This document shows, one piece after another, positions 8,964 through 10,958 of a DNA stretch of 64,000 bases; positions within the stretch are counted from its first letter, which is position 1, and each line of letters opens with the position of its first letter. The stretch is from the NCBI GenBank assembly GCA_963758495.1, contig CAVWVI010000004.1, positions 32,001 to 96,000 of the forward strand. The letters are read 5' to 3'. A program made the position numbers and the translations under genes. Origin of the DNA: Oligoflexia bacterium. Its GTDB lineage: Bacteria; Bdellovibrionota; UBA1018. The notes below the pieces were generated by a model, which made no database searches, was not told the origin of the DNA, and saw only the letters and a list, made by a program, of their open reading frames with translations.

Positions 8964-9194
8964 CGCTGTCTCCCTAATGTGTCGACCTATCGTTGGAGCC
9001 TTGACAATCGACTATAGGAGAGCGTCCGTCAAGGATTTATTCCGAATGGACCACCCGACTTCGGGAGCTAGATTGAAACCAGCACCACCTAGATTTCTCT
9101 CACTCATTACAGTAAATGTAGGCTAATAAATTCTTTTCAAACGCCTTCAAATGACATCCTCAAAATAGAAAAATGACAAAGTTTCCCACGCAGC

Positions 9195-10958
9195 TCACCG
9201 CGCACACACGACGTAGTAGTAGAAGAGGGCGTAGCTGCGGTAGTAGTAGCCGACATTGCCATTGGTGCCATTGAAGAGGAAGGCGAGGCTGGCACTATTA
9301 GGAAGCACCGACGACGACCAAAACCCCCCAAAACCCGCCATACCAGGAAGTGGGGTATATCCCCCAGGAGTACCCCTTCCCCGTGCTCTCGCCAATGCTT
9401 CAAACTGTTCCCGTGTCGGGGCGTTCCCACCGTTTTGTTCACAAAAGCCTGGATGATATTCTGTCCGACGATTCCAGGGCATCCCTACTCTTTCATAGCA
9501 TCCAGCTGCAGCTCTTTGGTTCATTGTGTTTGGTCCGGGAGAACTGAGCGTAAAAGGAGGAACTAATCCTATGGCATCAGTAATTCGATATTGCGGGCCT
9601 AATGCTGCAAACTCAGCGACATAACCTGGATCGTTCGGCCCTAACAGGACAGAATATGCATTACCTGCAACTTGAGGAACTTGGACTACAGCTTGGCCTG
9701 GAGGTGTGACTTGGGCGGATGATGATGAACTGCTAGAGCTTTGAGAGTCATTACCGGAAGTGAGCCCGGAATTTAGTTTGATACGATTATTCCAATCGAA
9801 TTTTGTACCACATCCATTGCTTCTGTTCAGCATGCCTAGGTTTTTAAACTGAATTTGATTCTTGTCTGCTGCATTTTGGCCGCATGTCATTGAAGAGCAT
9901 CCATCTCTCTTTTCAATGAGAATTTTACAGTTAGGACAAAGGCCATATTGGTCTCCCTTGCCTTGTTGTAAGACATCACGAATGAATGCCTTTTGTACTC
10001 CTTCATCCGTAGCCAGTTCCTTACACGAAATATCATGATGAGGTGGCCTTCCACAAGAAAAGCAAAGATCCTTGTGACAATTGGAGCAGTTGTAAGCAAA
10101 ATTCAGGAGGCCATTGAAACGAGCAATCCCTTCTCCACAACTAGGGCAAAACTTTAGGCAATCGACAGATCGCACGAGCATCCTCTGAACTGCCAAGGCC
10201 TGACCAGAATCTTTCACAATGGACGCAAGCTGAGTTGGGGAAATCTGAGAGTGACAAGTAGGATCAGGACAAGTAATCAGGTCTTTAGGTTTTTCCTTCT
10301 TTAAATTGAATTGCAAAGTCTCTTGGAGGCAAACGCGGTGAAAGGAATGACCACACTCTAAGAGCACAGAATCCTCTAGATCTGGATTCACTTCATCCCT
10401 ACAAATTTTACAAATCTTCTCTTGGTTCTCTTCCATTTGTTTCTCTTCAGAGAAACTAGCGTGAACCGAAGAAGCCTCTTTGTTAAGTTGGGTGGATATT
10501 AGGCGACGGGAAAATTCTCTGAGATAGAGAGCAGTCTTGACCAAATCAGAAGTATTGTCCTGCTGGCAAAATCCCAACAGGGCTTTAGGGATGCGGGAGA
10601 GCGTTCCATATTTAGCAAGTTCAGCAGCTTGTTTTTCTATGGCGATTCTTCGCTTTTCTAACAGGTCTTGACGATTCTGAAGATTTGAATCTAACTCCTC
10701 TAAACTACTGCTTTCAAAAGCATCTACTTCATCTGTGCTTGAGAATACTTGTTGTACTGATCCAACGGGCACATTCTCTATTCTACCGTCTTTAAACTGA
10801 ACAACAAGTCTCTCTTTAAGAGAGGCATCTAAAACGACCCCAAAAAGAGGTCCTGTTGAACTTTCAACGGTGACTGCATCTCCCGCTTTAAGTCCGGCCT
10901 GAGAATAAGAAGTAAGTCCAAAGGCCATTAAAATAGAGAATAATACAACTTTTTTCAT
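9195..10958 (-). CDS. Secreted RBR-type (RING1-IBR-RING2) E3 ubiquitin ligase-like protein with C-terminal CLec/DUF1566-like domain
   Basis: Signal peptide MKKVVLFSILMAFGLTSYSQA; RING1 CKIC..CGHSFHRVC..CPDPTC; IBR CPSC..CSNC..CFSC..HHDISC; RING2 CPNC.ILIEKRDGCSSMTC..CGTKFDW; tail PTREQF..FWSSS..VVCAR. Confidence 0.85.
   Translation of the reverse strand: MKKVVLFSILMAFGLTSYSQAGLKAGDAVTVESSTGPLFGVVLDASLKERLVVQFKDGRIENVPVGSVQQVFSSTDEVDAFESSSLEELDSNLQNRQDLLEKRRIAIEKQAAELAKYGTLSRIPKALLGFCQQDNTSDLVKTALYLREFSRRLISTQLNKEASSVHASFSEEKQMEENQEKICKICRDEVNPDLEDSVLLECGHSFHRVCLQETLQFNLKKEKPKDLITCPDPTCHSQISPTQLASIVKDSGQALAVQRMLVRSVDCLKFCPSCGEGIARFNGLLNFAYNCSNCHKDLCFSCGRPPHHDISCKELATDEGVQKAFIRDVLQQGKGDQYGLCPNCKILIEKRDGCSSMTCGQNAADKNQIQFKNLGMLNRSNGCGTKFDWNNRIKLNSGLTSGNDSQSSSSSSSSAQVTPPGQAVVQVPQVAGNAYSVLLGPNDPGYVAEFAALGPQYRITDAIGLVPPFTLSSPGPNTMNQRAAAGCYERVGMPWNRRTEYHPGFCEQNGGNAPTREQFEALARARGRGTPGGYTPLPGMAGFGGFWSSSVLPNSASLAFLFNGTNGNVGYYYRSYALFYYYVVCAR
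9198..9325 (-). other. Putative DGR variable region
   Basis: 32 consecutive NNY codons (25 NNC) at 9210-9305 between FWSSSV and VCAR*; TGTCATTT twice after the stop. Confidence 0.7.

Follow-up and report, generated by a model that had tools for sequence, protein, structure and literature searches.

The gene at 9195–10997 on the minus strand of the window (the whole 64-kb stretch of DNA that was analysed) ends in codons unlike those of the rest of its length, and the question that it raises is what wrote them. Codons 565–596 of the ORF form an unbroken run of 32 NNY codons (window 9305–9210), of which 25 are NNC and the final 15 exclusively so, while third positions in the body of the gene are only 55% pyrimidine and 18% C. 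The initial annotation had reported these counts, the contrast with the rest of the gene and the placement of the run between FWSSSV and VCAR*, and had read the run as a DGR variable region rewritten in trans. A recount on the minus strand returned the same numbers and bore out the position, though the codons that had been written out comprised 13 of the last 15 NNC codons and missed the GTC GGC that stand before them.

Codon signature and architecture of the target gene

Because Tyr, Phe, Asn and similar codons are NNY by the genetic code (17 of the 32 codons in the run are obligatory NNY), the bias was evaluated after conditioning on amino acids and genome codon usage. Under this treatment 7.3 C-ending codons were expected and 25 were observed (P = 3.7e-11), the strongest value among 2702 ORF 3' ends in the source genome, with the runner-up (3.2e-5) being the gene's own RBR paralogue. 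By plain NNY run length, the tail is third among the long ORFs of the source genome, surpassed only by a tandem repeat of 63 codons and a low-complexity frame of 35. Four-fold sites in the tail are pyrimidine in 15 of 15 cases and C in 13 of 15, compared to 157 of 266 and 56 of 266 in the gene body. Just upstream of the variable region, 7 of 19 four-fold sites differ between the gene and its closest paralogue, suggesting that the tail was reset well after the two split. The codon signature alone suffices to find and rank DGR-type tails of this kind. The variable region occupies the last 36 codons of the gene, inside a C-type-lectin (CLec) fold; a 101-aa frame overlapping the gene end (9137–9442) was taken as a shadow ORF. 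The features of the gene and its surroundings, by window position, are as follows.

2073–2978: ISL3 transposase
6868–8006: Fic-like pair
9149–9156, minus: TGTCATTT copy 2, with no GC-rich hairpin after it
9171–9178, minus: TGTCATTT copy 1, fitting the AT-rich 8-bp unit that in some true targets lies past the homing motif and ahead of the hairpin
9183–9209, minus: candidate IMH (last constant codons, stop, and GCGTGG at 9186–9191), its putative function based on motif enrichment
9195–10997, minus: target gene, 600 aa from TTG, with a likely start at ATG 10973 or 10958
9198–9662, minus: predicted C-type-lectin-fold domain of the Lcl_C (DUF1566) kind, from VIA-align fold matches
9210–9305, minus: variable region of 32 NNY codons that, compared with the G053 template, carries a 9-nt in-frame insertion (codon counts and template alignment)
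9306–9323, minus: constant 5' border FWSSSV, common to paralogues and to the templates of relatives
9792–9938, minus: RING2/Rcat with putative catalytic Cys367 at 9897–9899, from alignment to ARIH1
10023–10172, minus: IBR domain, aa 276–325 (Pfam IBR, E 3e-8, over cut-off)
10254–10412, minus: RING1 zinc finger, aa 196–248 (Pfam zf-RING_UBOX, E 6.1e-7, over cut-off; ARIH1 RING1 alignment)
10749–10898, minus: probable small Tudor/SH3-like beta-barrel (weak Foldseek Tudor matches, best E 3.6e-3; Pfam Tudor_3, E 0.079)
10896–10958, minus: predicted Sec-type signal peptide (basic start, hydrophobic core and small-residue end, read by eye)
13002–14300: rve integrase

Positions 400–7400 and 11700–17800 have the appearance of mobile-island surroundings, apparent toxin-antitoxin and nucleotidyltransferase genes (named from reading the sequence) lie near the target gene, and the end of contig C1 is repeated near window 12270.

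The gene is a fusion of an Ariadne-like RBR ubiquitin-ligase module to a CLec domain within a large family of such fusions, a point absent from the initial annotation. Its domains run in the order signal peptide, Tudor/SH3-like barrel, helices, RING1-IBR-RING2, Ser-rich linker and CLec. The Pfam RING match spans aa 196–244, and a profile built from the protein and its homologues matched human ARIH1 in one continuous stretch over RING1-IBR-RING2 (E 8e-14). The order of these domains, the zinc ligands and the catalytic Cys align with ARIH1/HHARI and other RBR E3s, with Cys367 falling on the ARIH1 catalytic Cys of GGCNHM and invariant in six of six alignment rows. A His two residues past the Cys is found in many, but not all, RBRs, and several active RBRs do without it. 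In the window protein this His of the described catalytic triad (PMC11354881), two residues past the Cys in ARIH1, is replaced by Ser, and the second zinc site of RING2 seems to be absent. The window protein further differs from ARIH1 in being bacterial, in its predicted signal peptide and CLec end, and in having no Ariadne domain.

The full-length structure model is poor (mean pLDDT 44, with the RBR part under 50), and the CLec domain, the last 155 residues, was modelled from 16 family members with a mean pLDDT of 69. VIA-align matched this model to the Bd2740 CTD (Z 9.1; rmsd 3.4 over 98 residues), intimin (8.9), Lcl (7.6), TvpA (6.7) and Mtd (6.4). Foldseek at E < 0.001 returned no match for either the full-length or the CLec model, and the ESM Atlas no usable match. 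Lcl_C (PF07603), presumably the former DUF1566, was matched in 14 of the 16 CLec family members, in all cases under the cut-off, and had no match in the window's own domain.

Four other full-length homologues were found, one of which has a source annotation as an IBR protein from a Bdellovibrionia bacterium. N-termini resembling the predicted signal peptide occur in P0002–P0005, and by alignment the Tudor/SH3-like barrel is present in P0002 but not in P0003–P0005. Invariance of the tail among homologues, which the initial annotation had named as evidence against its reading, was not observed, as the tails vary. The closest homologue, P0002, is identical at 398 of 494 positions outside the variable region and at 18 of 29 inside it, a moderate excess of change in the tail (p = 0.02); it is colinear with the window protein across the RBR and CLec, with 313 of 390 and 85 of 104 identical positions, respectively. 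Neither of the two tails holds E, K, Q, M or W. P0001, from a second assembly possibly of the same sample, has a tail identical to that of the window, and sequencing run X1 (5% of words) gave one identical 153-bp contig that lies outside the variable region.

Templates, homing signals and DGR machinery

An intact DGR was found in G053, a Bdellovibrionales genome of the same family and another genus, with the order target, avd, template (TR) and then RT on the opposite strand. The adjacent target has an IBR-like zinc finger at the contig edge (Pfam E 0.0012, under the cut-off) with a CLec downstream, and a frameshift splits it before the CLec. Its variable region differs from its own template at 14 of 36 adenines and at 1 of 48 other bases. 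The window tail differs from the same template at 21 of 36 adenines and at 9 of 48 other bases (p = 2e-4) and, at codon positions 1 and 2 only, at 17 of 32 and 5 of 24, respectively (p = 0.014). The adenine specificity on which the initial annotation had hinged is seen in the bias of these differences, though, with no cognate template found, against a template from another genus and with nine non-adenine mismatches. The 9-nt in-frame insertion in the window tail relative to the G053 template is consistent with a described DGR product, in-frame indels beside AAC (PMC5758913).

Among the dispersed CLec loci of G053, eight of the nine tested are adenine-biased relative to its template at p < 0.02 (one on a doubtful alignment), and the dispersed tails carry 4 to 12 or more non-adenine mismatches, compared to one for the adjacent target. 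In the source genome, 18 tails were scored, that of the window among them, and 12 are adenine-biased relative to the G053 template at p < 0.05. Elsewhere among the relatives, G001 holds two cassettes, each with a CLec target, avd, template and RT. At L068/L101 (G053:C4, about 40030–40120), the sequence past an IBR-like/CLec gene nearly duplicates the 3' flank of the template but leads to no RT, which suggests that a gene end can be formed by capture of a template copy. At L028 (G018:C141), a DGR-type RT belonging to the same lineage sits by a tRNA and toxin-antitoxin genes; the locus has neither template nor target and is a decaying cassette. Loci L031–L034, L037 and L038 are DGRs of another class in relatives, with GGSWNNN templates and, in some, an HRDC-like gene.

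The source assembly spans 3.66 Mb in five contigs and is 92% complete (8% of markers missing). The initial annotation had noted no template or RT in the 64 kb, which holds there and for the rest of the assembly, and the genome-wide template search that it proposed returned nothing: an ungapped A-tolerant scan, 45-nt sub-windows, AAY-rich windows, a pattern search and blastn yielded no cognate template, the AAY-rich/45-nt sub-window scan recovering tandem repeats only. No DGR RT was found among five RVT_1 matches (frames of 437–579 aa), one of which (L001) scores as a group II intron maturase and another of which (L004) was read as one, the remaining three being judged by size and score only; the G053 RT used as a query recovered just these five (24–30%). 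Avd was found neither by family nor with the relative's protein. A plain, unweighted blastn search of the whole assembly with the G053 cassette had the window variable region as its best match (73% over 89 nt, E 5.8e-7) and revealed no remnant of avd, RT or template flank. Across 116 genomes of the order, the initial template pattern matched none and a looser one matched three, G053 among them; a stricter pattern had no match in genome contigs, and the final one recovered G053 in genomes, had no match in viral contigs and gave two matches in metagenomes that were put down to chance. Searching metagenome contigs with the RBR alignment turned up no relative, and the G053 RT was not found in viral contigs, so a phage carrier of the cassette is not supported.

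As a candidate homing signal, GYGTGG within 14 nt past the stop occurs in 7 of 21 CLec ORFs and in none of 2686 other genes of the source genome, and a related motif follows most cassette-linked targets of relatives. The two TGTCATTT copies are where the initial annotation had placed them, on the minus strand, and are the sole pair within 30 nt among 207 genome copies, while a repeated 8-mer of any kind within 60 nt past the stop occurs in 150 of 2686 genes. Proposed as part of a homing signal, they may belong to the AT-rich 8-bp units that lie past the homing motif in some true targets: NRTNATTK, which TGTCATTT fits, is present twice or more in three of eight cassette-linked targets, 3 of 21 CLec ORFs of the source genome and 38 of 2686 background genes, numbers tempered by the motif having been drawn after the sequences were seen. 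A GC-rich hairpin of 7–11 bp within about 55 nt of the stop is present in all eight cassette-linked targets and in 1.4% of 1500 background genes. No such hairpin follows the window gene (the best stem is 4 bp), and just 1 of the 21 CLec ORFs of the source genome retains it. A 771-aa CLec paralogue at G000:C3:235983–238298 (minus), in a cluster of three, has GCGTGG, two AT-rich units and an 8-bp GC hairpin and is the best candidate for a former cassette neighbour.

Competing readings of the tail

The initial annotation's reading of the tail as a DGR variable region is well supported by the adenine bias of its differences from a relative's template, the CLec fold, the shared GCGTGG past the stop and the variable tails of homologues. 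A chance run, or one imposed by composition in a tail rich in Tyr, Phe, Asn and Ser, whose codons are often NNY, could draw on the 17 codons that are NNY by necessity, but this reading is refuted by the amino-acid-conditioned test, in which the tail ranks first of 2702, and the bias toward a real template and the flanking motif (7 of 21 versus 0 of 2686) leave it a negligible probability. The claim that the gene is a trans target fared less well and is not established, because template, Avd and DGR RT are all absent from the assembly and no GC hairpin lies downstream; the data agree no less well with an orphaned target. A cassette that falls in a gap of the assembly, or that rides on a mobile element left out of the bin, might still rewrite the gene remotely, which would accord with a signature as strong as a template's own (25 of 32 C-ending), an intact IMH-like motif, contigs that are not closed and lack 8% of the markers, and the adenine bias of eight of nine dispersed G053 loci (p < 0.02); moreover, a high-confidence inverted repeat accompanies only 34% of DGRs, and targets far from their cassette have been described (PMC5758913). 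Such continued activity is nevertheless unlikely given that 3.66 Mb hold no template, avd or RT remnant, that pattern scans of viral and metagenome contigs gave no matching template, that the hairpin of all eight cassette-linked targets is lacking here, and that dispersed G053 tails have 4 to 12 or more non-adenine mismatches against one in the adjacent target.

It is more doubtful still that the gene was never a homing target and acquired a ready-made CLec tail, used for attachment or delivery, by recombination from a cassette-linked gene or template copy. The same tail does sit behind many unrelated N-termini, this RBR also occurs, without any CLec, joined to ankyrin or pentapeptide repeats, one G053 gene runs into the template's 3' flank, and the top fold matches are adhesin tips. 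However, the RBR and CLec are colinear and similarly conserved in P0002 (313/390 and 85/104) and only the last codons have been reset, so that rewriting in place after the fusion fits.

With moderate confidence, we infer that the tail was rewritten recently by a mobile DGR cassette that has since been lost, and that the product is an exported, host-directed E3 ligase whose tip picks the substrate. A DGR of the Bdellovibrionales-family type (target, avd, template and opposite-strand RT) would have written the last 32 variable codons, with the RT copying an AAY-rich template RNA, misreading adenines and slipping three codons, and the mutated copy would have been swapped in for the end of the gene at GCGTGG, the putative homing site. 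The rewriting appears recent because third codon positions have not yet drifted. With the cassette absent from the assembly and no hairpin past the stop, the allele has most likely been frozen since the mobile cassette was lost, a loss that is probable rather than certain given an assembly 92% complete and in five contigs. Within a eukaryotic host, probably a protist, the exported protein would most likely act as a substrate-targeted E3: the CLec tip would bind a host protein, RING1 would recruit the host's ubiquitin-loaded E2 and Cys367 would relay the ubiquitin. The CLec tip could also serve attachment rather than substrate choice.

CLec-tailed proteins and known systems

An iterated HMM identified 21 CLec ORFs in the source genome, some of them fragments. 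The N-termini of ten paralogues that were scanned include RBR, IBR-like, RING (two), ankyrin-RING (two), Sel1 and metallophosphatase domains, and another four or five paralogues share a large domain without a Pfam name. The C-ending bias of the 19 paralogues scored ranges from P = 3e-5 down to none, all weaker than that of the window tail. The source genome has 15 RING_2 matches, the most of 75 family genomes (nine of which have any), and a USP-type deubiquitinase domain, and both domains are absent from 14 controls. E2, ubiquitin and an ATP/ADP (nucleotide) translocase were found in none of five genomes, a weak negative with the controls silent, and a T6SS sheath was likewise not found, so that these searches identified no delivery system. 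Across the 116 genomes of the order, CLec matches occur in 40, this RT lineage in eight (one of a distant type) and this RBR in three, each time with CLec present; more distantly, the RBR is joined to ankyrin or pentapeptide repeats without CLec. Seven genomes have at least seven CLec matches, of which two have the RT and five, 80–95% complete, do not. RT-centred DGR surveys miss remote targets (PMC8144416) and, with five of the seven genomes richest in these tails lacking the RT, would miss many.

The finding also points to a host-associated, non-predatory life in part of an uncultured Bdellovibrionales family. More tentatively, and with somewhat less than even confidence, a eukaryote-associated Bdellovibrionales subclade may use a come-and-go mobile DGR to hypermutate the substrate-binding tips of exported RBR, RING and ankyrin-RING ligases, giving antibody-like specificity in a host arms race, with the graded decay of tails recording successive cassette visits. 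If this reading is true, these bacteria may vary, antibody-style, the host proteins that they tag, and, through a DGR tip carried by an RBR ligase of eukaryotic type, targeted hypermutation would be linked to interference with a host's ubiquitin system.

Most DGR targets are tail fibres of phages, adhesins, or proteins of signalling or immunity. No published DGR tip on an RBR/RING ligase was found by titles and abstract starts, though supplementary DGR catalogues may list such targets, and no published DGR in Bdellovibrionota or bacterial RBR in this phylum was found. Bd2740 of Bdellovibrio bacteriovorus is presumably the tip of a fibre protein for prey recognition. Its CTD (PDB 8oks), the best CLec fold match, has 16% identity to the window domain and no ligase. 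Treponema denticola DGR targets are surface lipoproteins, and their template is in the genome, unlike in the window assembly. TvpA of this organism resembles the window CLec in fold (Z 6.7) and in being an unlinked CLec target, one cassette there serving seven non-adjacent targets (PMC5758913). The accessory gene is different. The LdtA-type targets of Legionella (CLec2, category d, DUF1566; Wu et al. 2018, PMC5758913) share the C-terminal CLec with its variable region, the Lcl_C-like matches, the IMH past the variable codons and, with the window's relatives, avd-TR-RT cassettes. They have an adhesin/lipoprotein stalk as N-terminus in place of the eukaryote-type RBR ligase, and differ in that the RT is on the opposite strand in the window's relatives and that the window assembly holds no machinery.

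A further parallel is offered by cyanobacterial variable proteins of the kinase-CLec and orthocaspase-CLec kinds (Vallota-Eastman 2020, PMC7517822), in which an enzyme domain is likewise grafted to a diversified CLec and which have many dispersed paralogues, graded likeness of variable region to template and remote targets; removal of the diversification parts once a variant is fixed has been suggested in the same source. Those genomes hold the DGR and the enzymes act in the cells' own signalling, whereas the window's family has ubiquitin-system domains and predicted signal peptides, and most genomes rich in its CLec fusions are without the RT. Remote targets and enzyme-CLec paralogue families are already known (PMC5758913, PMC7517822); the novelty is in what the tail sits on. 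SneRING of Simkania negevensis is similarly a bacterial, eukaryote-type zinc-finger E3 from an amoeba-associated lineage, but is a 25 kDa single-RING ligase rather than an RBR, and the available text mentions no CLec or DGR (PMC12591485).

Several further loci of the family were recorded. The closest CLec paralogue (L086, G000:C1:352098–352700, minus) is in two frames, is missing a long N-terminal part and retains a strong variable-region signature and the same homing-like motif as the window gene. Five proteins of 770–900 aa combine a CLec tail with a large N-terminal domain that has no Pfam name and bears a DCGETS.RNF motif (G000:C3:229–243 kb, C4:7845–10544, C1:184841–187390 and C5:2487–4799), a type also present in G053 and G054. 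Three proteins of 814–845 aa and a fragment have at their end an IBR-RING2 module of a second kind and no CLec (G000:C2:77994–80531, C3:741769–747777 and C5:154052–156496). At L105 (G000:C3:1163498–1171051) a 1323-aa RING protein adjoins a USP-type deubiquitinase frame, which a stop separates from the upstream frame. The ankyrin-RING-CLec paralogues have two possible binding modules each, and P0011, P0019 and P0027 carry two to four tandem CLec domains, those of P0011 behind an IBR-like domain.
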